NCBI GenBank assembly: GCA_035593605.1
Contig: DAOSWS010000005.1
Location: 52,834 to 116,833 of the forward strand
Origin: Thermoanaerobaculia bacterium
GTDB lineage: Bacteria; Acidobacteriota; Thermoanaerobaculia; UBA2201; DAOSWS01
Direction of reading: 5' to 3'
Length of the DNA: 64,000 bases
Position 1 is the first letter of the stretch. Each line of letters begins with the position of its first letter. A program made the translations under genes and the position numbers. Below, one piece after another: positions 3,581-55,800 of the stretch. The notes under the pieces are model-generated. The model did no database searches. It had not been told where the DNA came from and saw only the letters and a list, made by a program, of their open reading frames with translations.

Positions 3581-5605
3581 TTACTTCACTACCTTCAGGG
3601 CCTCATCGGTCGCTTTCAGAATCGGTTGAGTTGAAATGGAAGCACCCACGGCATTCTTCATCCAGGCCTCGGGGATCAATCGGCCCGCCGCACACATGCG
3701 TGGCATCTCTTCTCCGAGGTTTTTTCCTTCCAGGTAATGGCTGATCTGAAACTCGATCAGCTGCCCCAGAGGATAGTCCGGGAGGTACATGGCTCCATCG
3801 ATCATGTGGGAGTAAATAGCCAGGATCGGTTCATCTTTTACGCCGAATATGTCGGAGTAATACTGATTCCAGACATCTTTGGCGATGGAAAGAACAGCTT
3901 CCCGAAGCTGGGCAGGTGTCGCACCGGGGTGGTCGTAGAGCCAGTGCCAGACCTTCATGTCCACCAGGGATACCCCCATGATTTCATAAGCGGCCCAGAC
4001 CTTGTCGAGGGTCTCCAGGTACTTCGCATTCGGATCGTCGACGTTGATGCCGAGAACCTGCAGATCCTTACCCTGAAAGACGAAGGCAAAGGCCTCGGTG
4101 AAGGCTGTATTGGGTACACCGCGTAGTTCATAGTAGTCCACATCGTGAAGCGTCAGGGTCTGCTCGACGTTGTGACCCAGCTCATGCATGGCAATGTTGA
4201 AACCCTTATAGTTCATCCCATCCTTTGGTACACGTGTCCGCAGGCGGGATTTTTCACTCTTCATTTCCGCACCCCAGGCGTGGCCGGCTCCCCGGGCGGG
4301 ATCGACGGCGATTTTCGATGCGATAAAGGAAGCTTTTCCCTTTTCAAAGCCGAGGGATGTGAGGATGTTTGGAATATCCTTTTCAAAGGCTGCGAGGGTC
4401 GGATATCGCGCTTTTACCTTCTTATCCAGGAGATCCTCCGAAATGGTGCTTCGCGATTTAAACCCGTCATACCAGATGTCAAAGGGTTCAAGATTCCTTC
4501 CCAGCCTTTTCTGGATGAGGGCACCGACCCTTCGTATCTCGGGGGAGGACATGAGATCGGTGAAGAGCTTTTCCACGGTTGCCTCGGGAATTTCCCGGTC
4601 CTGCTCAAAGCGCCGTGCAATGTGGGTCGGCAGGGTGGGGTAGTAGGGATCCAGGAGCCGCATGGCCTGATAAGTGGAGAGGAAGTGGCCGTACCGGGTG
4701 TCGGGCTCCCGTTCCGCAGTGGAAGGTTTTCCGTCCTTGAAGAGGGTATTGGAATAGGGAGCCCAGGTATCGTCCTCGTTGTTAATAACGGAGGCCGGGA
4801 TTTCCTGCTGGATGATCCGTTTCATGACCTGGTAGATCATCTTTTGCCGGGCGAGACCCTTATCGTCGGCATACTGGGCTTTCAGCTCATCTCTTAGGCC
4901 CCAGTGGGAGATCAGTTTCAGATCCGCCGGAAAGAGAGATTTACCGTCTTCGGTCCGGAGGTTCCCCATGTAGATGTTGTAGTCCGCAATATAGGTGTCC
5001 GCGTCTGTCGTGACCTGGGAGATCTTCTGGTAGACCTCGGCGGGTACCCGGGATATATACTCGTCCCCGACACGGGCATAGGCCCAGTCCAATCGTGACC
5101 ATTTGGGATACGTTTCAGATTTTTCCTCCAGGGTCATGAAGGGAAAGTTGAGAACGACCATAAAGGCAATCTTGTTCTGGAAAAGATCCTCGGTCAGATG
5201 GGCGGCCGGGTTGTACTGGCCGAAGAGCATATCGATCGGAAGGATGTCTCCCGTATCCAGATGAAGAGGGATCTTAAGATCGAGAAGCATCTTGTTAAAG
5301 TGGCCGCTCAGGACCTCCTCATGCTGCTGAAGGTGGAGGAAAGTCTGTTTCAGCTGATCTTTATCGCCGATGAAATTTTCCGAACAGAAGGTTACAAAAT
5401 CATCAGGAGTTCCATCCTGCTCCCGCCAGAGGGCCGCCACACCCTTCACTCCCTTTTGGATGCGCGCCGATTCTGCAGGGAAATGACTTACAATCGTGTT
5501 CATGGCGCGCAGAATCGTTGCGTCATCCACGGCGGAAGGCCCTCCGAAGAGAGGAATCCAGGTCAGCGTAACGAGTAGAGAGACAATGAACATGGTTCGA
5601 AACAT
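3581..5605 (-). CDS. secreted zinc metallopeptidase (gluzincin; M2/M3-like dipeptidyl carboxypeptidase)
   Basis: Signal peptide. HELGH zinc-binding motif with a Glu about 24 residues downstream (…TEAFAF), the spacing seen in ACE-like M2/M3 peptidases. 674 aa. Confidence 0.55.
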   Translation of the reverse strand: MFRTMFIVSLLVTLTWIPLFGGPSAVDDATILRAMNTIVSHFPAESARIQKGVKGVAALWREQDGTPDDFVTFCSENFIGDKDQLKQTFLHLQQHEEVLSGHFNKMLLDLKIPLHLDTGDILPIDMLFGQYNPAAHLTEDLFQNKIAFMVVLNFPFMTLEEKSETYPKWSRLDWAYARVGDEYISRVPAEVYQKISQVTTDADTYIADYNIYMGNLRTEDGKSLFPADLKLISHWGLRDELKAQYADDKGLARQKMIYQVMKRIIQQEIPASVINNEDDTWAPYSNTLFKDGKPSTAEREPDTRYGHFLSTYQAMRLLDPYYPTLPTHIARRFEQDREIPEATVEKLFTDLMSSPEIRRVGALIQKRLGRNLEPFDIWYDGFKSRSTISEDLLDKKVKARYPTLAAFEKDIPNILTSLGFEKGKASFIASKIAVDPARGAGHAWGAEMKSEKSRLRTRVPKDGMNYKGFNIAMHELGHNVEQTLTLHDVDYYELRGVPNTAFTEAFAFVFQGKDLQVLGINVDDPNAKYLETLDKVWAAYEIMGVSLVDMKVWHWLYDHPGATPAQLREAVLSIAKDVWNQYYSDIFGVKDEPILAIYSHMIDGAMYLPDYPLGQLIEFQISHYLEGKNLGEEMPRMCAAGRLIPEAWMKNAVGASISTQPILKATDEALKVVK

Positions 5606-8976: not shown

Positions 8977-9558
8977 CTATTGTGTAGCTGCCGCCTTTTT
9001 GGACACCGTTACCTTCTTGATGATGACCTGCTCCACGGGCCAGTCACTGTGGGGGCCATGGTTCCCGGTCTTCACCTTGGCGATCTTGTCCACGACGTCC
9101 ATGCCCTCGACGACCTTACCGAAGGCCGCGTAGCCCCAGGTTCGTCCCGAGTCTTTGGACTTATGGTTCAGAAAGGTGTTGTCCACCAGGTTGATAAAAA
9201 ACTGGCTCGTGGCGCTGTGAGGGTCATTGGTGCGAGCCATGGCGATCGTACCCCGGGCATTGGAAACACCATTGTCGGCTTCGTTTTTAATCGGAGCATG
9301 GTTTTCCTTTTCGACGCCCTTCAGGTCGAATCCGCCGCCCTGAATCATGAATCCATCGATGACACGATGGAAGATCGTATTATCGTAAAAGCCCTCCTTC
9401 GCATAGGTAAGGAAGTTCTTCACCGTTTCGGGAGCTTTATCGGGGTAGAGTTCGATGACGATGGTGCCCATACTGGTCTCCAGCGAAACTTTCGGGTTCT
9501 CGGCAAAGACGGCTCCGGCGACGAGAGAAAAGGCGAGGAGAAGCAGAAATACTTTCAT
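8977..9558 (-). CDS. ppiA: peptidyl-prolyl cis-trans isomerase, cyclophilin type (periplasmic)
   Basis: Signal peptide. Cyclophilin signature [15 protein letters not shown]. 193 aa. Confidence 0.9.
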
Positions 9559-9808
9559 GATGACCTCCAGAAATAGTGGATGGGGAATAGTGTATCACTT
9601 GTTGCCTGCAGGGGGAAGAAAGGAATGGTGTCCGACTGTTCTGTGGGGGAAATACCTGGACTATTTTTAGAACTGGCGGCAATCCTTTCAAGATTTGTCA
9701 ACATTCAGTTTCCGACCCCGTTCTCTACTCAGACCCTTCTACAAGGATTAACCTTCCTCACCTGACAGTTCCACAGTCATAGCGAATGTTCCTGAGAATT
9801 GCTGACGG

Positions 9809-10732
9809 TTATGGTTTATGGAAGGGTATATCGTGCTTGTGATTGACCAGTTGGAATACAGATATGTGTGGATCATAGGGAATATATAGAAACGCATATA
9901 CTCGATCTTCTTGAGAGTTATACACCAATCTTGACCCACTCATGTCATCTTTGGACTGCACAATCTCGATTAAATACTCCCAAGAATAGTTATGAAAGAG
10001 AAGAAGATGCAAAGTTGTGACGTATAGGATACCTCCGTGTGCTGGTGAAAACACGCTTGCGAAATACTGATTGATAGGCGTACTCGGAGGATCAATTTCT
10101 GTCCATGTTGCTCCATCCCACATCCAGACATCAAATGCAGTGGGACCTCGTGGCAGAATGCATTTGTCAATAATGGGATCGTAGGAAAAAGCGGGATTTT
10201 CAGGTATTATAGTATCGAGATAGGTTGTAAGTATGGAAAGATCGTACTCCCATGTTTGGTAATAACCTGAATAGCCCATTCCGGGAAGAATATATACACC
10301 TCTATTTGAATCATATGCTACTACTTGTCCGCTTAGAGATAATTCCTCATGCAGTATCCAGTTCAATGCCTCATAATCCCAAATTAATACGTGGGTTTTA
10401 GCAATGGGATAAAGAGGACGTGAGCGGAAATCTACCATTGTCTGAAGCGTGGGATCAAAGAACATAGACATATCCAGCATGTCGTATCTGACAGAACCGC
10501 TATTCAATAGTGTCAACCTTCTTCCTTCCAGCATCCATGTGTCCACTCCGTCTGTACCATTCTGCACAGTAAGAATAAAGTGATTTTGGGCGGGATTAAA
10601 CGCAACATGAAATCTGCCTGACTTCACCATGGAATCACTTCCGAATGTGGTTACCTGCTCCCATTTCCATTCAGCAGACAGGAAGGTAGAGGCTAATAGG
10701 AGGATGATTAACAGAATCTTACGGTTGAGCAT
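9809..10732 (-). CDS. hypothetical secreted beta-rich protein (low-GC cassette)
   Basis: Signal peptide (MLNRKILLIILLLASTFLSA). Trp/Tyr-rich protein with no recognisable catalytic motif. Region GC is clearly lower than its flanks. Confidence 0.4.
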   Translation of the reverse strand: MLNRKILLIILLLASTFLSAEWKWEQVTTFGSDSMVKSGRFHVAFNPAQNHFILTVQNGTDGVDTWMLEGRRLTLLNSGSVRYDMLDMSMFFDPTLQTMVDFRSRPLYPIAKTHVLIWDYEALNWILHEELSLSGQVVAYDSNRGVYILPGMGYSGYYQTWEYDLSILTTYLDTIIPENPAFSYDPIIDKCILPRGPTAFDVWMWDGATWTEIDPPSTPINQYFASVFSPAHGGILYVTTLHLLLFHNYSWEYLIEIVQSKDDMSGSRLVYNSQEDRVYAFLYIPYDPHISVFQLVNHKHDIPFHKP

Positions 10733-11141
10733 TCTCTTCCTTTTTCCGTTTCCTATATTCTAGCCAAGATGTAACCCAGTATATGACTGCAGTGATACCC
10801 AAGATGCAGTAGAAAATCGGATTCAGCAGTGCTCCGTCTATTATCTGAAGGTTTTGAAACATTATAAGAAAGGCTATGGAAAAGAATATAGCACCTAATA
10901 AGTAGAAGGAGAGGAAGTTACCTTCACTGATATCCCCCCAATAGCGAAGAGGGAAATATAGCATCAGGTAAATTCCTGCCATGATGATAAACCCACCATA
11001 CGGGGTTGACCCAGTAACCATCTCTTTAGGAACAATGTTCATCCAGTGCAGAATCATCAGTGCCAGCCCTGGGTAACAAAGGACAAGACAGAAAATCAGG
11101 ATTATTCGAACTTGTTTGTGGGTATGAATTTCTTCTCCCAT
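10719..11141 (-). CDS. hypothetical small membrane protein (about 4 TM)
   Basis: Four hydrophobic helices and a KRKKEEN basic C-terminus. Overlaps the downstream gene by 14 nt, so coupled. Same low-GC cassette. Confidence 0.4.
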   Translation of the reverse strand: MGEEIHTHKQVRIILIFCLVLCYPGLALMILHWMNIVPKEMVTGSTPYGGFIIMAGIYLMLYFPLRYWGDISEGNFLSFYLLGAIFFSIAFLIMFQNLQIIDGALLNPIFYCILGITAVIYWVTSWLEYRKRKKEENAQP

Positions 11142-11321
11142 GGCAGGTCAATGATATCAGAGTCTCGTTTTTGATCTACAATTCCGGCGACACGATACCT
11201 ATTTCTTGGATTTTCTTCCTGTGGCTATTGCTGGGTCTCTTCGAATCCAGTTTCCATGGTTGGGGTTCATCCTGCAGTTTACTAATCTGGCTGCCCCGCT
11301 GGAGTGCTGGATCTCCTGATT

Positions 11322-11843
11322 TCAGACGGTGGTCTTCTTTGACTCCAGGTGGCGTTCGATCAGGTAGACGAGCTGGTCTTCCATCGTCGAGTCATAGCCG
11401 GAGAAGGTCATGATCAGAGAGCCCTTTGAATCCTGAACAAAGGTCGTGGGCAGGCTCTCAACACCTGCGGAGGAACTTCCCTCCATCAATCGATAGGCAG
11501 GCAGGGCTTCCAAGTCCTTCTTTTTAAGAAATTTCGTCACCACGGAAGATTTCGCGTCAAGACTGATGGTGATGAGCCGGACACCCCGGTCCCTGTAACG
11601 TTCGGCCACCTTCATCAGGACCGGAAGCTCCACACGGCATGGAGGGCACCAGGTGGCCCAGAAATTTACGATGGTGATCGTTCCCTGGAGATCCTCCAGC
11701 CGGTAAGTTTTCGTACCGTCCAGGTTGATCAAACGCATGCCGTTCAGGTTTGACGAAGCGCACAGGGAGGAAAATACGAGGAAAATCGAGAGTGTAATCA
11801 GAAGAATACGATGACGCATGGAGGAATTATAGCACGGGGCCAT
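11322..11843 (-). CDS. TlpA/ResA-like thiol-disulfide oxidoreductase (thioredoxin fold)
   Basis: Signal peptide or anchor. WATWCPPC active-site motif. 173 aa. Confidence 0.75.
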   Translation of the reverse strand: MAPCYNSSMRHRILLITLSIFLVFSSLCASSNLNGMRLINLDGTKTYRLEDLQGTITIVNFWATWCPPCRVELPVLMKVAERYRDRGVRLITISLDAKSSVVTKFLKKKDLEALPAYRLMEGSSSAGVESLPTTFVQDSKGSLIMTFSGYDSTMEDQLVYLIERHLESKKTTV

Positions 11844-11853
11844 TTGCGCGGAG

Positions 11854-12603
11854 TCAGCCCAGAAGGTCGACGATTCCGCCTACCGTGGGAATCACATGGT
11901 CCGGCCGGACTCCAGATTTTATTACGCGTTCCTCCCTGTATTTCCCGGTCTTGACAAGGATGCCGGTCATCCCCAGCCGCTGTGCGGCGCCTACATCGCT
12001 TTCGATATCGTCCCCCACCATGGTGGTAGTCTCCGGCGTTCCTCCGAGGAGGTCCATTGCGATTTTGAAATAGTCCGGGGAAGGCTTTCCAACGATTCGA
12101 GCTTCTGTCTGCGAGGCATATTCAAGGAGGGAGACATAGCCGCCCAGATCCAGATGAAATCTTCCGCCCGCCTGCCAGTATCGATTCTTATGGAGGGCGA
12201 TCAGAGTGGCTCCTTCGAAGAGAAGGTGAAAAATTTCTGTCAACCTCTGATGAGTAAAATCGCTTTGCAGATCGGCCAGTACAACCACCTCCGGAGGATC
12301 GGTTTCGCAGATCCCTGAAAAATCGGGTCTGAGGTTGTCCGGGATATAGAGCCTGCATCGCTTTCCATTTTCGAGCAGGAGCTGCCTTGCGACACGTCCG
12401 GGCGTCACGATACGATCACGGGTAATGCCCGGATCGATCGGCCTCAGACGTTCCAGGATCTGCTCCGTGGAGTAAAGGGTTGTATTGGTCAGATAGAGAA
12501 AGGAAATACCTTTCTTTTTGCAGGCGGCAATGGCATCCTTCGAACCGGGAATCGGAGCCCAGTCCTCCAGGAGTACGCCGTCGATGTCAAAGAGATAGTT
12601 CAT
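11854..12603 (-). CDS. HAD-superfamily hydrolase, subfamily IIA (NagD-like phosphatase)
   Basis: N-terminal FDIDGVL motif I. C-terminal GDxxxxD motif (MVGDDIESDV). 249 aa. Confidence 0.7.
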   Translation of the reverse strand: MNYLFDIDGVLLEDWAPIPGSKDAIAACKKKGISFLYLTNTTLYSTEQILERLRPIDPGITRDRIVTPGRVARQLLLENGKRCRLYIPDNLRPDFSGICETDPPEVVVLADLQSDFTHQRLTEIFHLLFEGATLIALHKNRYWQAGGRFHLDLGGYVSLLEYASQTEARIVGKPSPDYFKIAMDLLGGTPETTTMVGDDIESDVGAAQRLGMTGILVKTGKYREERVIKSGVRPDHVIPTVGGIVDLLG

Positions 12604-13486
12604 CCAGAGAGCGGAGAAAGGTCAAACCCTTCCACCATGCCAGGGTCATCCATATCCTTAGAATCATGAAGACCTCCTGTCCTGCAAAGCCAAATCCCGT
12701 CATTTCCAGAAGCTCCCGGCTGAGGGACCAGAGGATGTGGAGACCTGTCACCAGAAAAAGAATTGTGGCCAGGTAGAGGAGGGCCGAAGGGAAACGGCGA
12801 AAGGACGTTGCGATTCCATCCACGGCCGACACCCAGAATCCGTGGCTGTCGGGAGAGGCAATCGCCACGCGGGCAAAATCGAGTATGATTTTCAGCCATA
12901 GCATCAGGAGGAGGAAGAGAATCACGGGAATCCAGTGGAAGATGAGGTAGAGGAATTCCGTGGGTGCCGGGTCAAAGAGGTTTGAAATCAGTTCTCCGCC
13001 CCGGATCAAGACAATCTGGTAAAGAAGAATCAGAAGAAAGAGCTGCAGCAGAAAAATGAGAAAATATGACGGAAAGAGACGCATGCAGTCACACCCGAAG
13101 TCCTTCAGGTTGAGCCGGGTTCCACGTTGCCAGTGTCCGAGGATTCCACCAAGAATAAGGGCCCAGAAGATAAGGTAGAGGACTACGGTCACCGCTATGG
13201 AAGAAGGAATGGTTCCGTTGCGGAAAAAATCCCCGAGTACCTGCAACCCCTCAAAGGAGAGAAACTGCTGGAGAGGTTCCAACGACCCCAGTGCCTGTGG
13301 ATCCCTGTCCATCATCAGGGAAAGGGTGTCACCGTTGACCTGGGTTCCCGGGTGGGGAGCCAGAGTGTGATGGGCGTAGGCGTTCCAGAGGAGTGCGGGT
13401 ACGGCGGCCAGGAGGATGTTACCCACAAGGACCAGGAGGATGAAACGGACTTTGAATGCCAGGAGGATCTCTCTCAGAATACGCAT
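12587..13486 (-). CDS. hypothetical polytopic membrane protein
   Basis: Multiple hydrophobic helices. Overlaps the neighbouring gene ends, indicating operon packing. No recognisable motif. Confidence 0.4.
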   Translation of the reverse strand: MRILREILLAFKVRFILLVLVGNILLAAVPALLWNAYAHHTLAPHPGTQVNGDTLSLMMDRDPQALGSLEPLQQFLSFEGLQVLGDFFRNGTIPSSIAVTVVLYLIFWALILGGILGHWQRGTRLNLKDFGCDCMRLFPSYFLIFLLQLFLLILLYQIVLIRGGELISNLFDPAPTEFLYLIFHWIPVILFLLLMLWLKIILDFARVAIASPDSHGFWVSAVDGIATSFRRFPSALLYLATILFLVTGLHILWSLSRELLEMTGFGFAGQEVFMILRIWMTLAWWKGLTFLRSLDELSL

Positions 13487-15318
13487 GAGGCAACCTCCAT
13501 GACGTTCTGGACGGTAAAGAGGATCCAGCGGGTAAAGGTGAAGCCTGCAATTCGAGCCGGTCGGAACCTCTGGGAATTGTTGAGAGGATTATCATCCAGA
13601 AAGAGTATTCCGTCCGGGTCGATTTCGACACTGTGAAACGTCGCGTCGCTGTTGAGGCGATACCGTATCCACCGTGCCTGTCCGTTCCACCGTTTCTTAA
13701 TTCTTCGTCCGTCCGAGAGCGTGAAGGTGATGTCCACGGGTAATGTGATATCGCCCGTTCTCACAATCAGGGCTTCCGTCGGTTTCAGATCTTCCACCCG
13801 GAGATCAAACCCGTTCCTTGAACTCACGAGGGTGCGGAACAGTCTCGCCCACGAGTTTCCGGCCTTTTCTCCAACGATCCGGATGAAATCTTCCGGCGCA
13901 GGATGGGAAAAAGCGTAGCGTTGCGCGTAGGTGGAAAGAATGTCGATCATTACCTCTTCGCCTGCGAGGTTTTCAAGGGTCCGCAGGGCCATGGCCGGAC
14001 GATTGTAAGCATTGGCACGGTAGGAAGGCCAGTTGGCCATCCTGAATCCTGAGGTGTCCATCGTGTCGGTTTTCGGATCTTCGTAATATCTGGAATTGAT
14101 ACGCCGGAAAGGGTGCATGGGAAAGGCAGAAAAGGATACGGGGAATTCCCAGATTCTCAATGCGGGGGTGAGTTCCGGTTTCAGGCTTTCCATCAGCCGG
14201 GCTGAGGTGTAGGTTGTCAGTCCTTCATCCAGCCAGGGATGTTCCACCTCATCTGAACCCACGATGCCATAGAAATATTGATGTCCGAACTCATGGGCCA
14301 CGACATAGGCAGGATCCAGGTTTCCTTCCGACAGAAGATGACGGGTGGCGGCAATGATCATGGTCGGATATTCCATTCCGCCGCTGCCCCGTGTCGCGTG
14401 CCAGGGAGGAACCACAATGGAGAAGTGATCGTATGGATAGGGACCGACCCAGCGTGCATAGTGATCCATGCTGGCTTTGATGGCCCGGATGTACTCCTCC
14501 TCCTGGTAGCGGTACTCTCCCGGCATCAGGAGGGTGATTAGAATTGAATGCCCGGATAGGGGGGCATACTCGAGGGAGGTGGTTTCCAGACCCTTGCCGC
14601 ATACCCATGCAAAATCATGGATGGAATCCTGGGCGATGGTGACAAGTTCCAGCCCGGACTCCCCTGAACTCCGGCCGGTCACCTTTCCGGTAGCCGCCAG
14701 AACGTAGTCTCTGGGGATCTGGAGTGAAACCTGATAATCGGCATAGTCAGCAAAGAATTCGGTGGAAATATGGTACTGGTGACAATTCCATCCCTGATCT
14801 GAGAATACTCCCATTTTGGGGTACCACTGGGTGACCTGAAAATAGTCCTTTGCGTACCCGGAACGAAGGAGAATGGATGGCAGGACTGCGGTCCACTTGA
14901 TATGCAGGGAAATTGAATCTCCAGGCAGAACCGGACGGGGAGGGATGACTTCCATGACGGTTCGATCCGCTGGATTTCCATCGTCGGGTGAAATGAAACT
15001 GTATTCGAGGGGGTCGCCTTCCGTCTGTCGAACCTCATGAAGATCAATCCTGCCAAACCTTACGGCTCCGTGAGCTCTCATGTCCAGCCATGAGCCAGCC
15101 TCGACAGCCATGGTCGATTCGCCGTCGGCAAAGGCGTTCAGGTAGAGGTGAAGTCGAAGCGTTCTTGCCGGAATTGTGGCTGTGTTTGTCCAGACAATCT
15201 CTTCGTCGCAATCGAGACTATGAGAATCGACGTCGAGCCGGGCGTGAATCTCGTACGAAAGCGGGAGGATGCTGGACGCGGCCATAAACAGGAAAAGAGA
15301 GAATAGAGCCCGTACCAT
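13474..15318 (-). CDS. M1-family zinc aminopeptidase (secreted)
   Basis: GGMEYP (GxMEN-like) motif. HEFGH-X18-E gluzincin motif (VAHEFGHQYFYG…WLDEGLTTY). Start set at Met 15318 (MVRALFSLFLFMAASS signal peptide) because the longer ORF to 16038 overlaps the opposite-strand NfeD/SPFH genes. Confidence 0.75.
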   Translation of the reverse strand: MVRALFSLFLFMAASSILPLSYEIHARLDVDSHSLDCDEEIVWTNTATIPARTLRLHLYLNAFADGESTMAVEAGSWLDMRAHGAVRFGRIDLHEVRQTEGDPLEYSFISPDDGNPADRTVMEVIPPRPVLPGDSISLHIKWTAVLPSILLRSGYAKDYFQVTQWYPKMGVFSDQGWNCHQYHISTEFFADYADYQVSLQIPRDYVLAATGKVTGRSSGESGLELVTIAQDSIHDFAWVCGKGLETTSLEYAPLSGHSILITLLMPGEYRYQEEEYIRAIKASMDHYARWVGPYPYDHFSIVVPPWHATRGSGGMEYPTMIIAATRHLLSEGNLDPAYVVAHEFGHQYFYGIVGSDEVEHPWLDEGLTTYTSARLMESLKPELTPALRIWEFPVSFSAFPMHPFRRINSRYYEDPKTDTMDTSGFRMANWPSYRANAYNRPAMALRTLENLAGEEVMIDILSTYAQRYAFSHPAPEDFIRIVGEKAGNSWARLFRTLVSSRNGFDLRVEDLKPTEALIVRTGDITLPVDITFTLSDGRRIKKRWNGQARWIRYRLNSDATFHSVEIDPDGILFLDDNPLNNSQRFRPARIAGFTFTRWILFTVQNVMEVASCVF

Positions 15319-15375
15319 AAGCGTAGTGTAACACATGGAGTGCAATGATCGTGGAAAAATTTCGGAGGTGAATTC

Positions 15376-15810
15376 ATGAACTACACCCTTTGGGGCTGGT
15401 TGATCCTGGCCGCGCTTTTCTTTGTCGCGGAGATGTTCACGGCCGGGTTCTTTCTTGCCTGCTTTGCCGTTGGATGCCTGGGGGCGGCGGGATTGGGAGC
15501 CCTGGGAGTCGGGCTCTGGTGGCAGGTCGGCGCCTTTGCCGTTCTTTCGTTGATCACCTTCTTCTTTACCCGACGGATTGCGGAGAGGGTCACCGGTGAT
15601 CAGCCGATGGGAGTTGGCATTGACCGTGTCCTGGGTAAGCAGGGGCTGGTCCTCGAGACGATTGACACCGTGAGGGCAAAGGGAATGGTCCGTGTCGATC
15701 GAGAAGAGTGGCGCGCAATTACTGAAGATGGGAGTGTGATCGAAGCTGAATCGGTCATTCGGGTTACCGGCGTTGACGGTACCAAGCTTGTTGTCAAAAA
15801 GGAGGAATAA
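15376..15810 (+). CDS. NfeD-family membrane protein (short form, OB-fold C-terminus)
   Basis: Two to three N-terminal TM helices followed by a small soluble beta domain. Immediately upstream of, and coupled to, an SPFH gene, the canonical NfeD-SPFH operon arrangement. Confidence 0.7.
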
Positions 15811-15811
15811 G

Positions 15812-16762
15812 ATGCCTGTCATTTTCGCGTTTGCCCTATTCGTCATTTTCTTTGTCATGATGGGGGTCCGGGTTGTGAAACCCTTCCAGAAGGGTGTTGT
15901 AGAAAGGCTCGGGAAGTACAGGAGAACCGCACATCCGGGAATTACACTGCTCATTCCGATCTTTGACAAAATGCATAAGATAGACATGCGGGAGCAGGTG
16001 GTGGACGTTCCGCCCCAGGAAGTCATCACGAAAGACAACGTTGTTGTAACCGTGGATGCCGTGGTCTATTACGAGGCCACCGACCCGGTCAAGCTGGTGT
16101 ATAACGTCGCGGATTTTTATATGGCGGCTACAAAACTTGCCCAGACCAACCTTAGAAATGTTGTGGGTGATATGGAACTGGATCAGGCCCTCACCAGCCG
16201 GGATGCGATCAATACGAAACTGAGAGAAGTCCTGGATGACGCCACCGATAAGTGGGGAACCCGGGTTGTACGCGTCGAGATTCAGCGTATCGATCCTCCG
16301 GGAGATGTCACCCAGGCCATGCACCGCCAGATGAAGGCCGAGCGGGATAAACGTGCCCAGGTTCTCGAAGCGGACGGTGAAAAACAGGCGAAAGTCTTGC
16401 GTGCTGAGGGAGAAGCCGAAGCCATTCGAAAGGTCGCAGAAGCCAACCGTTTCAAGCTCCTTACCGAAGCCCAGGGTGAAGGGGAGGCGATCACGACGGT
16501 TTTTTCTGCTATTCGAAAGGCGGAACCCGATGACAAGCTGATTGCGATCCGCTATCTCGATGCCCTGAAGGTGATCGCGGATGGAAAAGCCAATAAGCTT
16601 TTTCTCCCCTATGAAGCTTCAGGGATCCTGGGAGCCCTGGGAGGAGTCAGGGAGATTTTTAAGGACCAGGATGAAGGAATGCCGACTCCTCCTGTACCTG
16701 AAAATAAGGGACAGCGTCAGAAGAAAAGCAGGGAAAGCTACAATTTCGAAGGGGAAAGTTGA
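15812..16762 (+). CDS. SPFH/band-7 (stomatin/prohibitin-like) protein
   Basis: GGAGG RBS at 15801-15805 and ATG at 15812, one nt after the NfeD stop. N-terminal TM anchor. Band-7 core (…[19 protein letters not shown]…). Ala/Glu-rich coiled-coil C-terminus. Confidence 0.85.
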
Positions 16763-38061: not shown

Positions 38062-41000
38062 TTAGTCGAAGAGAATAGTGGAAATGTCAAATTGCTTCAC
38101 GAAATCAGCAGCATCTCTGGCCGTCAGGGGACGTGAAATATGGTACCCCTGGGCATAGTTGCATCCCAGATCTTTTAGCGCACGGATCTGCTCGGCCATC
38201 TCGACGCCCTCTCCCATGACCTTCATATTCAGGTGATGGCCCAGCGAAATAATAGTAGATACGATTTCCGAACGGTCTTTGGGAGACTTCATCTTCATAA
38301 TGAAAGATCGATCAATTTTCAGAAAATCCAGAGGAAACTGATGCAGGTAACTCAAGGATGAATATCCAGTGCCAAAATCATCCACCAGGAGCTTGACTCC
38401 CAGTGCCTTCAGCTGAAACAGGGTGGATGTGACATCTTCTACCCGTTCCATGATCATACCTTCGGTGATCTCCAGGCCAAGAGAGTCGGGAGAAAGGTTG
38501 CATATGCGGAGGGTTTCACCGATGAATTCGGGAAGGTCAGGCTGGTAGAGAATGTGGTTGGAGAGGTTAACGGTGCAGGACAGATCTGCGCTTTCCTTCG
38601 TGAGGGATTTCCATTCCGAAAGTTGCCGGCATGTTTCTCCAATGACCCACCGATCAATCTCCGCCATATAGCCGGCATCGGTTGCGATCGTAAGGAAGTC
38701 ATCAGGTGTCATCAATCCCCGCTCCGGATGCTTCCATCGTATGAGGGCTTCAAAACCGTGAACTTTGGACAGATCCAGGTTAATAATCGGTTGGTAATGA
38801 AGGTTGAATTCCTTCCGGTTTAACGCGGATCGGAGCTCGTTCTCAAGCTTGAGGATGGATACGGCCCGGGCATGCATGCCGGCTTCAAAGATGGCGTAGG
38901 AGCCTCTGCCCAGAACTTTTGCCTTGTACATGGCTGATTCGGCATCCCGGAGATAGAGCTCCGGGCGGCTGTGAGCGATATGACTGAAGGAAATTCCGAT
39001 ACAGGCTGAGGTGTAGATTTCATGTTCGCCAATCGTGATGGGAGACTGGAAAGAGGTCAGGATCCGATCTGCCAGACGCGTAACCTCGGAAGGATCTTCA
39101 ACATCCTCGACCAGGATGGCGAACTCGTCTCCTCCGAGCCTTGCAACCGTGTCTCCGGGAAGGAGGCTGCCGCGGATTAATTCTCCGGTTCGTATCAACA
39201 GACGATCTCCGATGAGGTGCCCCAGGCTTTCGTTTATCACCTTGAATCGATCCAGATCGATGTGCAGAACAGCAAATGTGGTTTCTTCACTGCGACGGGT
39301 GCGCTCGATCGCCTGACCGAGACGGTCGGTGAAAAGTGCACGGTTGGGAAGAAGGGTCAGTGCATCGTGAAACGCGTCATGGAGAAGCTGCTCCTCTGCT
39401 CTCTTCCGATCGGTGATGTCGGTCTGGGACCCCGCCATTCGTATGGGACGGTTTTCCTCATCCCGCACGGCCATGCCCCTGGCAAGAACCCAGCGGTAGG
39501 TACCATCCCGATGGACGATTCGGAATTCTCTTTCAAAATGGGGCTCGAGGCCAGCCAGGTGAGCCTGAAAAGCACTTTCCACTTCCAGCCTGTCATCCTC
39601 ATGAATCCGTTCCAGCCATTCTCCAGGTTTGCTGCTTATCTCTTCCTCCGCAAATCCAAGCATCGATTTCCACCGGGGTGAATAATAAACCGTGTCATGC
39701 TTTAAATCCCAATCCCAGAGGCCGTCGTTGGCGCCTTTTGCAGCCAGTGCATAGCGGAGTTCACTTTCCTGAAGAGCCGTTTCAGATTTTTTCCGGTTTG
39801 AAGATTCTACCGCAAGGGAAACAAGGTCGGCCATCGATGCCGCGAAGAGTTCCTCATCAAATTCCCACGCTCTTCTTGGGCCAATATGTTCATGACAGAG
39901 GATCCCGATCACTTCTCCGCCGATACGGATCTGGGCATCGATCATGGAGGAAATGTGGTTTGGTTTCAGGTAGCCATTTGCAAATTCTCGCGTTCGGGGA
40001 TCGGTGAGCACGTCGTCGGTGGCTATCGTGCGGGATTCCCGGATCGATTTAAAATAGACCGGGAAATCCGCGACGGCGAGCTGGATACCGGAATCGTGAA
40101 AATCATCGCTTCGCGAATAGAGGTCAATACAGTCTAATTGTTTTCCGTCGCCCGAGAACATCCATACACTGACGCGCTCGACATCAAGGGTCTCTGCGGC
40201 TTTCCGGGTAACCTGACGGATGAAAGCAGGGAGATCGCCATGGGAAAGCTCGGCGCTTTTCGTCAGATCCAGCAGAACCCTGTTCTGGGTTCGAAGACGG
40301 TGATCACTGTCGCGAATAATGCTCTCCGCCCTTTTTCGATCCGTGATGTCGCGGCCGATTCCCTGTAAGGTTCCATCGGGTAGACGGACTGCGGAGATTT
40401 CCACGGGGAATTCCGTTCCATCTTTTCTTTTGAATGTCCGCTCAAGAAGGACCGCACGCTTTTCCCGTAAAGACGGTATCTGAAGGGGAAGGCGTTTCAG
40501 ATCTCGCTCTGGAATCAGTTCAGTGTACAATTTTCCGATTAATTCTTCCTTTGAATACCCTGTCATATTGCATGCAGCCTGGTTGACCTGGAGAATTCGG
40601 GCATCGTCACTGACAATGTAGATGGCATCGGAAGCCTGTTCGATGAGCGTCCGATAACGTACTTCACTTTCGATCACTGCACGCTGGGATTTGACGATCG
40701 ATGTAATATCTTCCACGGTTCCATCGTAGTACAGTACTTCTCCGGCGTCGTTCCGAACGACAGTCGAATTTTCCCTGACAAAGAGAGAGGAACCATCTTT
40801 CCTTTTCCACTCCGCCTCAAACCCCTGAATCGTTCCTGAAGCATGGATGACTTCCAGAAATTCTTTTCTGGTGCATGCATCTTTGTATCCCGATTCTCGG
40901 ACATCGATGGAAGAGAGGTCCTCAAACGATGAATAACCCAGCATGGAAACCAGCGCAGGATTCGCCATCAATACCTTTCCGTCAGGCGAAGTCCGATAGA

Positions 41001-43707
41001 TCCCGATGAGGGCGTTTTCATAGAGGCTTCGGAATCGTTCCTCCGATTCACGGATTCGTTCCTCCGAGAGCTTCTTTTCCGTAATGTCATCTTCGATCCC
41101 GATCATGTGCGTGATCGCGCCGTCATCATCTTTCAGAGGAGAAACGGTGAGGTGGACCCAGAATAGTTCACCGGTCTTTTTCCGATTCACAAGTTCTCCA
41201 GACCAGACGTCACCTGCTTTCACCGTTCTCCAAAGGTTCTCATGTACCTGCGGATCGTGATAGTCGGATTGAAGAATATCCGGTGTCTTCCCGATTGCCT
41301 CTTCTCGCGGCCAGCCGGTCACCTGGACGAAACGCTCGTTTACGTACTCGATCGCCCCTTCTGGATTGGTAATAATGATAATACTGCCACTTTGCTCCAC
41401 GGCACTGGAAAGCATGCGCAGTTGAGCCTGTGTCTTTCTTTCCCGGGTCGTATCTCGAATCGTTCCAAGGGTGGCAGGGGCGCCCATGTACTGGATTAAT
41501 CCTGCTGTGATGTGACAGTAAAGACGATGGCCCTCTTTGTGAATGAGGCGGATGTCATATTCAGAGGGAATGCTTTCCCCTGCCTGCCTTCGTGCATATC
41601 GGTCCAGCACCATCTCCTTGTCTTCGGGCGCGAGGATGTCTTCGTACGACACGGCCATAAACTCGGGGTGGGTGTAGCCCAGCATTTCGGCAAAGGCCTC
41701 GTTGGCGAAGATCATCTTTTGCCCCTGAAGGAGAAAAACGCCGTCGTGGATGTGCTCCACCAGAGTGCGGTAATGTTCTTCCGATTCCTTCAGCCTCTGT
41801 TCTGACCGCTTCTGATCCGTGATGTCTTTCAGGGTTCCCAGGCTGGCCACGCTGCCTTTGTAATTCAACAGACCGACGTGCATGAAAACATGGACGCGGG
41901 AACCATTCCGGTGGAGAAGCCTGAATTCGTATTCATCCGGAACGTCCTCTCCAGCCTGGCGTTTTGTGTACCGATCCACTACCCAGTCGTGGTCCTCCGG
42001 GGCGATGATGGAGTCGAAGGGGAGGGAAAGCAGGTCATTGGAACTCATTCCGACCATGCGGGCGAAAGCTTCGTTGACGTATTTGAAAATGTTGTCCTGG
42101 ATTAGAAAGACACCATCTTGGATGTTTTGAAGGAGAGTCCGGTAGTGTTCCTCCGATTCCCGAATTTTTTCTTCCGCCTGCTTCGACTCCGTGATATCAC
42201 GTACAATTCCGCAGATGGAGTGAACCCTGTCCCCTTCCATCTCCAGAGGGACCTGTACGGTATGAAAATAGTGGATTTTTCCACCAATGGTCAGTTCTCG
42301 AATTTCATCGACGATCTCTCCGCTGAAAGCCGCATTATCGACTTCCCGAATAATGGTGGCCGCTTCCGGAGGAAAGAGATCTTCAGGACACTTGCCCAGA
42401 AGCTCTCTCTGGGAGACTCCAAAGAGACGGGCCATGGAAGGATTGACAAAGGTGTACCTGCGGTCCATGTCCTTTATGAAGATGGAGTCTCGCGCGGTTT
42501 CGGTGATGGCTCTAAACCGCGCCTCGCTCTCTTTTACCTTCTTTTCGGCCCTGCGAAGTTCTTCAAGGTTTCTTACAAGAGCGACGGCAATGGGTTCATT
42601 TTTTCCCGTGCGCAGAACTTCTCCGATTCTCCGGAGGCGGACTTCCACGGGAAACTGCGTACCGTCGGCTCTTTTTGCCATCCATTCCACATCGACGGAT
42701 TCCCCGTCCAGGGCTCGTTTGACATATTGAAAGGCCTGCTCCTTTGTGCACCCGTCTCCCATGAACTGTTCGGGATCGTTCTGAAGGATTGCATCCTTAG
42801 AACATTGATACGCCTTCAGGACGTTGGCATTGACGTCGATCAGGCGTCCATCCGCTCCGTGGATAAAGATCATGTCGGGGGATGCATCGTAAATCGCCTG
42901 GAGAAAATCTCTCGCTTCCCTCAGGGATTCTTCCGCATGAACTCTCTCGGTCACATCCTCACCCGATGAGAGGGTGTGCGTGATGAACCCGTTCTCATCC
43001 CGGAGGTAGGTGTTGCGCCATTCGATCAGCCGCTCATCCCCCTTCCTGGTCCGGACCGGGTTGGCGTATTCAGTGAAGGCCTGGACCTGCCCGTGGATCA
43101 GGGATTCAAATACTCCCTTCAGCTCTCCCGCCATCCGGGAGGGAATAAAGGAGTCAAACCAGTTCTTTCCCACAATTTCAGAGACGGAATAGCCAAGAAT
43201 TTCAGCACCCTTCCTGTTGATATGGACAATTTGTGCCTGTGGATTCAGAATTAGAAGGATTACGTTTGCGACATCAAAATACTTCTGAGCCAGGTCGCGC
43301 TGGTGTTCCAGCTCCCGGATGACCGCGATCCTCTCGCTAATGTCTCGAAAAAGTCCCAGAACATGGGTCTTTCCCTCAATTACGAGATTTTTTGCGCTGA
43401 TTTCGACCGGGATGCGCTTTCCGCTGGAATGAACCACTTCCAGCGGCTCGGATATCGCTTTCCCTAAAGCCTTATGATCCTGGAAAATCTTTCTGTAGCG
43501 CTCCCGATCTTCGGGCGGGTGCAGTTCTGACTGATGCTTTCCCAGGATCTGGTCCCGGGGCAGTCCGAGCAGTTCCTCAGACCGGTGGTTGATTTCTACG
43601 ATCACGCCCCTGTCGTCGGCGATAAAAATGGCATCGTTCGCACTGTCCAGAAACGAACGTGCTTCCTCCGGCAGATGGAAGATTCCTGAATCAGACTCAG
43701 GGTCCAT
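38062..43707 (-). CDS. multi-PAS/GAF sensor diguanylate cyclase/phosphodiesterase (GGDEF-EAL)
   Basis: About 10 PAS/PAC units (recurring …NEAF…G(Y/W)…E(E/D)…G motifs) and a GAF. GGDEF (RLGGDEFAIL). C-terminal EAL domain (…QPI…EALIRW…, DDFGTGYSSL). 1881 aa. Confidence 0.85.
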   Translation of the reverse strand: MDPESDSGIFHLPEEARSFLDSANDAIFIADDRGVIVEINHRSEELLGLPRDQILGKHQSELHPPEDRERYRKIFQDHKALGKAISEPLEVVHSSGKRIPVEISAKNLVIEGKTHVLGLFRDISERIAVIRELEHQRDLAQKYFDVANVILLILNPQAQIVHINRKGAEILGYSVSEIVGKNWFDSFIPSRMAGELKGVFESLIHGQVQAFTEYANPVRTRKGDERLIEWRNTYLRDENGFITHTLSSGEDVTERVHAEESLREARDFLQAIYDASPDMIFIHGADGRLIDVNANVLKAYQCSKDAILQNDPEQFMGDGCTKEQAFQYVKRALDGESVDVEWMAKRADGTQFPVEVRLRRIGEVLRTGKNEPIAVALVRNLEELRRAEKKVKESEARFRAITETARDSIFIKDMDRRYTFVNPSMARLFGVSQRELLGKCPEDLFPPEAATIIREVDNAAFSGEIVDEIRELTIGGKIHYFHTVQVPLEMEGDRVHSICGIVRDITESKQAEEKIRESEEHYRTLLQNIQDGVFLIQDNIFKYVNEAFARMVGMSSNDLLSLPFDSIIAPEDHDWVVDRYTKRQAGEDVPDEYEFRLLHRNGSRVHVFMHVGLLNYKGSVASLGTLKDITDQKRSEQRLKESEEHYRTLVEHIHDGVFLLQGQKMIFANEAFAEMLGYTHPEFMAVSYEDILAPEDKEMVLDRYARRQAGESIPSEYDIRLIHKEGHRLYCHITAGLIQYMGAPATLGTIRDTTRERKTQAQLRMLSSAVEQSGSIIIITNPEGAIEYVNERFVQVTGWPREEAIGKTPDILQSDYHDPQVHENLWRTVKAGDVWSGELVNRKKTGELFWVHLTVSPLKDDDGAITHMIGIEDDITEKKLSEERIRESEERFRSLYENALIGIYRTSPDGKVLMANPALVSMLGYSSFEDLSSIDVRESGYKDACTRKEFLEVIHASGTIQGFEAEWKRKDGSSLFVRENSTVVRNDAGEVLYYDGTVEDITSIVKSQRAVIESEVRYRTLIEQASDAIYIVSDDARILQVNQAACNMTGYSKEELIGKLYTELIPERDLKRLPLQIPSLREKRAVLLERTFKRKDGTEFPVEISAVRLPDGTLQGIGRDITDRKRAESIIRDSDHRLRTQNRVLLDLTKSAELSHGDLPAFIRQVTRKAAETLDVERVSVWMFSGDGKQLDCIDLYSRSDDFHDSGIQLAVADFPVYFKSIRESRTIATDDVLTDPRTREFANGYLKPNHISSMIDAQIRIGGEVIGILCHEHIGPRRAWEFDEELFAASMADLVSLAVESSNRKKSETALQESELRYALAAKGANDGLWDWDLKHDTVYYSPRWKSMLGFAEEEISSKPGEWLERIHEDDRLEVESAFQAHLAGLEPHFEREFRIVHRDGTYRWVLARGMAVRDEENRPIRMAGSQTDITDRKRAEEQLLHDAFHDALTLLPNRALFTDRLGQAIERTRRSEETTFAVLHIDLDRFKVINESLGHLIGDRLLIRTGELIRGSLLPGDTVARLGGDEFAILVEDVEDPSEVTRLADRILTSFQSPITIGEHEIYTSACIGISFSHIAHSRPELYLRDAESAMYKAKVLGRGSYAIFEAGMHARAVSILKLENELRSALNRKEFNLHYQPIINLDLSKVHGFEALIRWKHPERGLMTPDDFLTIATDAGYMAEIDRWVIGETCRQLSEWKSLTKESADLSCTVNLSNHILYQPDLPEFIGETLRICNLSPDSLGLEITEGMIMERVEDVTSTLFQLKALGVKLLVDDFGTGYSSLSYLHQFPLDFLKIDRSFIMKMKSPKDRSEIVSTIISLGHHLNMKVMGEGVEMAEQIRALKDLGCNYAQGYHISRPLTARDAADFVKQFDISTILFD

Positions 43708-52845: not shown

Positions 52846-55800
52846 TCAATTACAGGTAAAGGTGACCTGTATTTTCCAGGTTCCCCCGTCGTTGTACTTG
52901 TTGAGATAGATCGTGCAGTTCCCGACGAGCTCGTAGAAAACCAGCGGCCGTCCGTTGTCGGTCAGAACAGTAGGATCCGGGTCGACGTAGGGTGAGGTGA
53001 TATCGGCGGCGTAAAAGTCGTCGTCATCTTCGGAGCCGTTGGCTTCCATCATCGAGCCTTCCCCTTCGTCGGCAACCATGTTCGCCCCGGAGGGATCAAG
53101 GGCCGGGTCAGCAGGATGGGTCTGCACAAAGATCGCGTTCAAGGCTGTGGAGAGGGGATTCGTAGAAGCAATCTCGTCATTCCGGAGAAGGTCGGGAATC
53201 GGGATCGGTCCCGAATCGGGATCTAGGTAGTCGGGAATCCCGTCGTTATCCTGGTCGTCATCACTCCAGTCTCCATTCCCGTTGGTGTCCTCCTCCGAGG
53301 TGTCATAGCCGTCCCCGTCGTCATCCACATCCTGAAAGTCGGGTTTCCCGTCCGTGTCGGTGTCCTGAAGGGTCGCCGGGGTCGTCTCGTAGGAGTCATC
53401 CAGGCCGTTTCCGTTTGTGTCGGTAATCGTGTCGATCTGACCGTCGCCATTCGAGTCCACGACCGTCGTATTGTCGTTCACGCCGTCATGATCCGCGTCG
53501 TTCCCCTCGATCAGGTCTTCCACCCCGTCTCCGTCGGCATCAAGGTCCTGAAAGTCCGGGCTGCCGTCCCCGTCGGTGTCGACGGGCTTGGTTCCCAGAT
53601 CACTGTCTCCCGCTTCGTCCGCGTCGGGGATCCCGTCGTTGTCACAGTCCAGGTCGAGGTAGTTGGGTACTCCATCCCCGTCGAAGTCTCCGAAGGATTC
53701 GTCCTCGTCGGAGATCGTGTCCCCGTCGGAGTCCAGGTCCAGGTAGTTGGGAATTCCATCCCCGTCCGGGTCGCCCAGGCCTTCCTGACCGTCCGAGATT
53801 CCATCATCGTCGCTATCGGGGTCCCTGAAGTCGGGGATCCCGTCTCCGTCGGTGTCCACCGGGGGTGTGTCCGGGTTCCCGTCGCCCCCTTCCACGGAAT
53901 CGGGGATCCCGTCGTTGTCCGAGTCAAGGTCCAGGTAGTCGGGAATCCCATCGCCATCCGTGTCCCCCGCACCCTCATCGCTGTCGTAAATCCCGTCCCC
54001 GTCACTGTCCAGGTCCTGGTCGTTGGGGATCCCGTCTCCGTCCTGGTCATCCAGCGGGGCCGAATTCTCCGTCACGTCAGGAATCCCATCGTTGTCACTG
54101 TCCGTAAGGGCGTCGGGATCCAGAAAGTCGGGCTGTGTATCCCCGTCGCCGTCTCCCGTCCCTTCAATCCGATCAGGAATCCCGTCGTCATCGGAGTCCG
54201 GATCCAGGTAGTTGGGAATTCCATCACTATCCGTGTCGTCCCCGATCGGGCTCGTGTCTCCCCCGAAGCGGTCGTATTCGTTTGCGGTGGGGATCCCGTC
54301 GTTGTCATCGTCAGTGTCAAGGAAATCGGGATTGCCATCATTGTCGCTGTCCTGCAGTGCCGCCGGTGTCGTCTCATAGGTGTCATCCAGGCCGTTGCCG
54401 TTCGCATCGGTGATCGTGTCGATTCGGCCGTCGTTGTCGGCATCGGTCACGCCGGTGTTGTCATTGGCGCCATCCTGGTCGGCATCGTTCCCTTCGATCA
54501 GGTCCCACACGCCGTCGCCATCACTGTCCAGGTCGAGGTAGTTGGGAATTCCGTCTCCATCAAAATCTCCCGCTCCCTCCGCTGCATCCGGAATCCCGTC
54601 GTTGTCACTGTCAAGATCGAGATAGTCCGCGACGCCGTCCCCGTCACTGTCCCCCGATCCTTCTGTTACGTCAGAGATCCCGTCCCCGTCGCTGTCCGTT
54701 GGTACGTCGGGATCCAGAAAGTCCGGCGATCCGTCTGTGTCGGAGTCCGCCGTACCCTCAATCTGGTCCGGAAGTCCATCCGCGTCGGAGTCCAGGTCCA
54801 GGTAGTTGGGTATGCCATCCCCATCGTAATCATCGGTCCCGGTTCCGCTGTCTTCCACGCTGTCCGGAATCCCGTCGCCGTCGGAGTCGGGATCCAGGAA
54901 ATTGGGAATCCCGTCCCCGTCGATATCCCCGGTGCCTTCGATACTGTCGGGAATGCCGTCCCCGTCGGAGTCGTCATCGATGTAGTTCCCCAGCCCGTCT
55001 CCGCCATCCGCTGTGTCCCCTGTATGTTCCGTAGCGTCGGGGATGCCGTCGCTATCGGAGTCGAGGTCGAGGTAATTGGGGTTCCCGTTGGAGTTCGTGT
55101 CATCATCTGTGGGATCGCCGTTCCCGTTGGCGTCTTCGTCCGCCGTGGGGATGCTGTCCCCGTCATCGTCCGGATCGAGATAGTCAGGGAGGGTATCGCC
55201 GTCGAAGTTCTGCGTAACGGCCGGCGTGCCTCCTTCGCTGGGGTCGTAGTGGTCGTCCCACCCGTCTCCGTCTGCGTCGGTGATTGTGTCGATCCTGCCG
55301 TCATTGTCCGCGTCGGTAACTGCATAGTCGGTAACACCGTCAAAGTTTGCATCATTGCCTTCGATAAGGTCCCACACTCCGTCGCCGTCCGAGTCCAGGT
55401 CGAGGTAGTTCGGAATTCCGTCCCCGTCGGCATCTCCCGTTCCTTCCACTGCGTCCGCAATCCCATCGTTGTCCGCATCCAGATCTGGAGTGTCGGCAAT
55501 TCCGTCCCCGTCGGTGTCAGGTTCCAGTACGAAGTCATCCATGGCGGCCGCGTCCGGATCCGTTGGGGAATAAAGGGGCGGGATCGGTGCCCCGGTGGGA
55601 TAGATCACTGCGTGCCAGGTTCCTTCCGAGCCCAGGCTCGAACCGTCGACGCTCGTCGACAGCTCACCTGATCCGTTGGTGATCACGGTCTGGGTGAGTA
55701 CGAGGGTTCCGTCTTCATCGTAGTACACCACCGTATACGACGTTGTGGGCAGGAGGGGACTTCCGTAAAGATAGATCGTATCGGCCAGCGTAAAGTAATC

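Follow-up and report, generated by a model that had tools for sequence, protein, structure and literature searches.

We report here an islet of about 1.6 kb and about 42% guanine-plus-cytosine (GC) content at positions 9650..11300 of a 64-kb stretch of a Thermoanaerobaculia genome (contig DAOSWS010000005.1; the whole stretch of 64,000 nucleotides is hereafter called the window). It lies between a cyclophilin gene and a TlpA-like gene and contains two open reading frames (ORFs) on the minus strand, of which the downstream one encodes a protein of 307 residues that, judged from sequence profiles and a structural model, is a divergent Kelch-type beta-propeller, and the upstream one a predicted membrane protein of 140 residues. 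On our analysis, this is a genuine case of an accessory gene pair acquired by horizontal transfer, though a fairly unremarkable one.

In the explanation that we favour, about 1.6 kb of DNA from a lower-GC member (about 40-46%) of the community would have entered a recipient Thermoanaerobaculia genome of ~54% GC between its TlpA-like and cyclophilin genes, a direction and mechanism of transfer that we infer. The acquired DNA would specify a Sec-exported six-bladed Kelch propeller, presumably delivered to the periplasm, and directly upstream of it an inner-membrane ORFan with four helices that is probably co-translated with the propeller. The propeller may serve as a periplasmic or cell-surface module that binds a ligand, either a glycan or a protein, most likely without enzymatic action; large Kelch surface proteins of bacteria contain many repeats of modules of this kind. 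The protein with four transmembrane segments (4-TM), if expressed, could be the membrane-side partner or anchor of the propeller. We hold this explanation, taken as a whole, with moderate confidence.

Base composition and codon usage

Profiles in 100-bp and 300-bp windows showed that the GC content drops from 0.50-0.57 to 0.35-0.48 at about 9650 and rises again at about 11250. Both edges fall within intergenic regions and are placed with a precision of ~50-100 bp. When 1333-bp windows were used (mean GC 0.538, standard deviation [SD] 0.033), the minimum of 0.416 was found at start position 9851, and the islet was the sole stretch below 0.47 in the 64 kb. An earlier note on this DNA had described a marked GC drop at this place, which is borne out. 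Its figure of about 57% GC elsewhere is somewhat high: the whole window has 53.9%, compared with 42.8% for 9700-11320 and 41.6% for the two ORFs combined.

As a host reference, we used 29 long ORFs of the window, with a GC content of 0.539 (SD 0.022) and a GC content at third codon positions (GC3) of 0.616 (SD 0.054). Relative to these genes, GC and GC3 are 0.419 (z -5.5) and 0.406 (z -3.9) in the gene of the 307-residue protein, and 0.411 (z -5.8) and 0.461 (z -2.8) in the 140-residue ORF. Synonymous codon choice was scored as a per-codon log-likelihood ratio between the host genes and the genes of L002, a contig of 42% GC that carries a homologue described below. All 29 host genes scored between +0.09 and +0.36, and the two islet genes scored -0.28 (307 residues) and -0.18 (140 residues), which is inside the range of the contig's own genes. 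Based on both measures, which the earlier note had proposed as a check, the islet is clearly distinct from the host genes.

The 307-residue protein is a divergent Kelch-type propeller

Kelch-repeat beta-propellers are composed of tandem units of 44-56 residues, each of which forms one four-stranded antiparallel blade. In the 307-residue protein (9809-10732, minus strand), a blade motif of the general form (A/F/V/S)(F/Y)(N/D/S)(P/S) occurs six times at a spacing of 43-48 residues, namely AFNP at residue 44, FFDP at 91, AYDS at 139, SYDP at 183, VFSP at 227, and VYNS at 270. In most blades, the Y-D and Trp positions are in register with canonical Kelch units, and in most the Gly-Gly doublet is degenerate or missing; residue R144 is invariant. 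An AlphaFold2 model with a predicted local distance difference test (pLDDT) score of 87.9 contains 24 strands in six groups, and solved Kelch domains are closest to this six-bladed fold. The alignment underlying this score included Kelch segments from our profile search, and an alignment of only two sequences gave a pLDDT of 34.

No family was identified by hmmscan of the protein against Pfam and NCBIfam, even at E≤1-10. A profile built from the protein and its homologue P0002 matched 4530 proteins, and the subfamily profile reached E values down to 5e-50. Seven of the seven long matches tested carry Kelch_3, Kelch_4 or PF24681 (E 1e-16 to 1e-93), and the nearest sequence relatives are surface-type Kelch proteins with multiple repeats and Ig domains. 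Because the curated models miss the 307-residue protein, its assignment is indirect, and the link runs through these profile matches. Together, repeat pattern, profile matches and predicted fold identify it as a divergent Kelch-type propeller, so that the statement in the earlier note that it has no recognisable motifs was wrong. A protein that appeared as an orphan to Pfam, NCBIfam and word-indexed search was thus recognized once the profile search was made exhaustive and the alignment deepened. The description of the protein as rich in Trp and Tyr with a signal peptide was accurate (Trp 3.3% versus 1.2%, Tyr 6.2% versus 3.7%).

A Sec-type signal peptide is predicted at 10673..10732 (minus strand) from the sequence, the subfamily alignment and the model, with a putative cleavage site between MLNRKILLIILLLASTFLSA and EWKWE. 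The model begins with a helix at residues 2-17, followed by a strand at 21-27. This first strand of the mature protein (WKWEQV) lines up with the final strand of a Kelch unit, a feature shared within the subfamily, and presumably closes the propeller ring. At the other end, the C-terminal tail, H-x-x-P-F-x-K-P, is disordered in the model, with a pLDDT below 50 for residues 301-307. Comparison of the window gene with that of P0002 gave dN = 0.24 and a saturated dS, which suggests that purifying selection is likely, at a strength that a saturated dS does not quantify.

The bacterial Kelch proteins of the "galactose oxidase central domain" type (Kelch_3 PF13415, Kelch_4 PF13418, PF24681) have in common with the window protein a repeat of ~45 residues, six predicted blades, and the signature (A/M)-Y-D ... 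T-W-x-(W/Y)-D-G-x-x-W. By contrast, the window protein falls below every Pfam Kelch model at E≤1 and has mostly lost the Gly-Gly doublet. With ~285 residues, the mature protein comprises one stand-alone propeller; its bacterial Kelch relatives have 5-16 matched stretches in 500-3000 residues. The C-terminal tail is present in the subfamily and missing from the large bacterial Kelch proteins. Eukaryotic Kelch domains, such as those of muskelin, LZTR1, KLHDC and Keap1, are 8-13% identical to the window protein and, unlike it, are cytosolic and part of multi-domain proteins (with BTB, LisH and other domains).

A rare subfamily on low-GC contigs

Five full-length relatives with a single matched stretch of ~290-325 residues were seen, which are the window protein, P0002, P0124, P0201 and P0248; P0273 is a 300-residue variant of P0124. 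In a word-indexed search of 5.8 billion proteins, P0002 (67% identity) was the sole homologue besides the 307-residue protein itself. P0124 (45% identity) was found by the exhaustive profile search. Conserved features of the subfamily are the signal-peptide end A↓(G/E)-W-x-W and, in all five members, the C-terminal tail H-x-(R/K/I)-(P/T)-F-x-(K/R)-P; in the window, the last seven codons and the stop codon of the gene occupy 9809-9832. Polar residues that do not vary within the subfamily are H42, D84, D93, R103, E162, D164 and H300. To our knowledge, this tail resembles no known C-terminal sorting signal. Our literature search turned up nothing specific to stand-alone Kelch proteins of this subfamily.

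Four of the five subfamily genes have a GC content of 39-44%. The gene of P0002 is located on contigs of ~42% GC, in a neighbourhood wholly unlike that of the window, next to genes of a tyrosine integrase, a C-type lectin, a thioredoxin-like CxxC protein and a He_PIG protein of 1762 residues. Between the window and L002, only the Kelch coding sequence is similar at the DNA level (71.6% identity over window 10620-9834). The gene of P0124 is on a contig of 46% GC, between a DUF7674 gene and a gene of an outer-membrane beta-barrel protein. The window protein, P0002 and P0124 are encoded on different contigs, and all three are present in JGI sample 3300010350.

Further observations concern these contigs. 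The P0002 contig (L001-L005, for example L002:3401-16229) is patchy in composition, with a GC content of 0.32-0.56 in 500-bp windows; L002 also encodes an SMC/AAA-like protein of 986 residues and a DUF11-like protein of 498 residues, and the contig possibly represents a mobile island or one of surface proteins. At L182:134-1401 (ENA ERZ23498360 scaffold_586639), two subfamily genes are arranged in tandem with an overlap of 4 nt, P0248 being followed by a gene that starts VTLKNLLLVALLIIIAFSLQAGWVWEKL...ETWTFDGTKWEY and is broken off by the contig end. A gene of a thioredoxin-fold protein is positioned directly upstream of the Kelch gene both in the window (WCPPC) and in L002:9261-9824 (CHAC; weak match to Pfam Thioredoxin, E 0.0066). 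We considered conserved synteny and rejected it, given that the two proteins have no BLASTP similarity and the TlpA-like gene of the window has host composition; the shared neighbour is probably a coincidence.

The upstream ORF is probably a gene

The 140-residue ORF (10719-11141, minus strand) is the upstream member of the pair. Hydropathy supports about four hydrophobic segments, at residues ~12-32, 48-64, 75-95 and 104-126, in agreement with the four transmembrane segments assigned to it in the earlier note. These segments are evenly spaced, and the basic C-terminal tail RKRKK fits an N-in/C-in topology according to the positive-inside rule, as predicted for a small inner-membrane protein. 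The ORF overlaps the Kelch gene, as also described before; the overlap measures 14 nt (ATGCTCAACCGTAA) and brings together the stop codon of the ORF and the start codon of the Kelch gene (junction at 10719..10741, minus strand). The sequence AGGAAG at 10736-10741, which resembles a Shine-Dalgarno sequence and precedes the Kelch gene, falls within the upstream ORF at its 3' end. Such a layout is typical of translational coupling, and coupling of the two genes thus appears plausible.

The alternative is that the 140-residue ORF is not a gene, and that the islet consists of the Kelch gene and its AT-rich 5' leader and promoter, in which the long open frame is accidental or a decayed remnant. Several findings weigh in this direction. 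Among 5.8 billion proteins, word-indexed search returned the ORF product alone, none of the fetched loci contained a homologue, and no match among the curated families was above threshold. Weak matches to ABC2_membrane_5 (E 9e-4), ABZJ_00895 (E 2e-3) and CARF_2M (E 0.011) were judged to be compositional because they are below the curated cut-offs where these exist (the PADLOC models have none) and are confined to hydrophobic segments. There is no Shine-Dalgarno sequence before the first ATG of the ORF, compared with GGAGG for the cyclophilin gene and AGGAAG for the Kelch gene, and gene callers differ on the start, giving either 140 residues or 112 residues from Met29. All copies of the ORF are identical and so provide no conservation signal, and other subfamily loci have no comparable neighbour.

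Against a frame open by chance, only 33 of 5000 composition-matched shuffles of the region contained an open frame of at least 138 codons, and T occupies position 2 in 43% of the codons. The regular hydrophobic segments with their basic tail, and the position of the Kelch start codon and Shine-Dalgarno sequence within the end of the ORF, likewise argue against a non-coding leader, which we therefore consider rather unlikely. We regard the 140-residue ORF as probably real. Its relation to the propeller is conjecture. The "cassette" of the earlier note, understood as a conserved functional pair, lacks support, given that pairing with a 4-TM gene was observed at no other subfamily locus.

The proximal spacer (11142..11321, 180 bp from the TlpA-like stop codon to the start of the 140-residue ORF; GC 0.41-0.48) presumably holds the promoter of the gene pair. 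The distal spacer (9559..9808) comprises the 250 bp that separate the stop codon of the Kelch gene from the start of the cyclophilin gene, over which GC rises from 0.42 to 0.49, and contains no tRNA, Rfam match or significant repeat. Promoter-like and terminator-like matches around the islet were at chance level only.

Origin of the islet

Acquisition by horizontal transfer, from a lineage of lower GC content in a community of this kind, is supported by the sharp break in GC and GC3, a codon usage like that of a 42%-GC contig, and the occurrence of homologues in unrelated contexts of 42-46% GC, in line with the origin suggested in the earlier note. The homologue contigs sampled here do not represent the donor because an identity of 67% is too low.

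It might instead be proposed that no transfer took place, and that the islet is an old, lineage-specific AT-rich resident, the low GC content of which is kept by its amino acid content or by weak codon selection at poor expression. Consistent with this, no tRNA was found in the window, no Rfam element, integrase, transposase or insertion sequence (IS) element at the islet site, and no flanking repeat above 11 nt with one mismatch. That best pair, an imperfect direct repeat at 9703-9713 and 11245-11255, was rejected as a target-site duplication, given an estimated ~20 such pairs expected by chance in 2.3 kb; the direct repeats that the earlier note had suggested looking for in the flanks are thus at chance level. 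In addition, no near-identical donor was found, and both genes are present on every conspecific contig. Exact look-ups of the flanking proteins (15 contigs each, from JGI, ENA and Logan samples) reported no place that lacks either gene, and three contigs that we aligned are 100% identical to the window across 7-8 kb. Samples with the contig include JGI 3300010350, ENA ERZ27257410 and SRR5007222. The contigs with the islet are one clonal population with no polymorphism, in which the islet is fixed.

Nevertheless, long residence does not readily account for a GC3 of 0.41 and 0.46, compared with 0.62 (SD 0.05) in the host, together with a synonymous codon choice that matches a low-GC contig, both of which are independent of amino acid content. 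The break is sharp and restricted to two genes, those homologues for which the contig can be judged are in unrelated contexts of 42-46% GC, and the low GC content extends to four of the five subfamily genes. An origin without transfer is thus improbable.

Comparisons beyond the clonal population were made through the neighbouring genes. The nearest orthologues of the tricorn protease are 50-58% identical, and their surroundings differ, with MsrB upstream and synteny lost. Scans of collections with the TlpA-like protein returned relatives of at most 43% identity, swamped by the generic thioredoxin motif WATWC, and tblastn of all window neighbours against 160 loci from these scans identified no conserved neighbourhood. 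Small genomic islets in general are similar to the one described here in having a sharp break in GC and codon usage, ORFan or patchily distributed content, and homologues elsewhere in co-resident organisms, one of them here beside an integrase. The present islet differs in its size of only 1.6 kb and in that no integrase, IS element, tRNA target or direct repeats were found.

Possible functions of the propeller

A periplasmic enzyme is an alternative to the binding module that we favour, for example a sugar mutarotase similar to NanM/YjhT or another carbohydrate-active six-bladed propeller that acts on a digester substrate. YjhT/NanM, the periplasmic N-acetylneuraminate mutarotase of E. coli (PDB 2uvk), has no detectable sequence relation to the window protein, and the window locus has no sialic-acid gene context. 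A PDB sequence-profile search with the subfamily profile matched no chain, YjhT included, and neither NCBIfam nor Pfam gave a match. Sugar transport or catabolic genes are not adjacent, and the closest relatives are the surface-type Kelch proteins with Ig domains. We thus consider an enzymatic role unlikely.

The earlier note had also raised the possibility of a toxin/immunity-like or phage-receptor-like pair, in which the propeller is an effector or receptor and the 4-TM protein protects the producer; small multi-TM proteins are common immunity proteins against membrane-acting toxins, and the two genes are a tightly coupled, horizontally acquired pair, but this reading is highly improbable in view of a plain six-bladed Kelch propeller with no toxin domain, the lack of any match in PADLOC, PHROGs, phage, plasmid and viral-contig searches (tblastn of both islet proteins against INPHARED phages and PLSDB plasmids found nothing, and IMG/VR viral contigs held no confirmed relative of the Kelch subfamily), the absence of secretion or delivery genes within 10 kb on either side, a gene order with the membrane gene first, and the lack of the 4-TM gene at every other locus of the subfamily, with two tandem Kelch genes in its place at one of them.

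With an exported, ligand-binding propeller as the preferred reading, the import of the islet is modest: a small accessory envelope gene would have moved between compositionally different members of one community of the anaerobic-digester type, the recipient belonging to a poorly sampled lineage of Acidobacteriota. Anything new would have to come from the conserved C-terminal tail and the 4-TM ORFan alone. It is conceivable, but in our view doubtful, that stand-alone exported Kelch propellers of ~300 residues constitute a new, rare mobile family, that their tail is a recognition motif for an envelope partner such as a PDZ-containing protease or a sorting factor, and that a newly arisen 4-TM ORFan was recruited as a coupled membrane partner.

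Flanking and other genes of the window

The genes around the islet are of the housekeeping type. The flanks are as named in the earlier note, with the cyclophilin gene (8977-9558, minus strand; Pro_isomerase, E 8e-53) on one side and the gene of a TlpA/AhpC-TSA-like thioredoxin-fold protein (11322-11843, minus strand; WCPPC) on the other, both identified by profile match and of host composition. Farther out, on the same strand and also of host composition, are genes of a HAD hydrolase, an M1 peptidase and a tricorn-like S41 protease. Adjoining the gene of the tricorn-like protease, 3581-5605 (minus strand) encodes a protein of 674 residues with host composition and no Pfam match. Likewise of host composition and without a Pfam match, a 299-residue product encoded at 12587-13486 (minus strand) appears hydrophobic by eye, and its gene overlaps the HAD gene by 17 nt.

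Elsewhere in the window, a signalling protein of 1881 residues (38062-43707, minus strand) combines about ten PAS domains with GAF, GGDEF and EAL domains, and a diguanylate-cyclase-like sensor domain is located at its N-terminus. Two giant genes adjoin each other on the minus strand, one of 1887 codons and 59% GC with no Pfam match at E≤1e-4 (52846-58509), and one encoding 1679 residues with PKD and Ig-like repeats (58905-63944). For the M1 peptidase, the mechanically derived ORF at 13474-16038 (minus strand, TTG start) has 854 codons, compared with gene calls of 603-620 residues on the source contigs, and its N-terminal ~230 residues are probably not translated.
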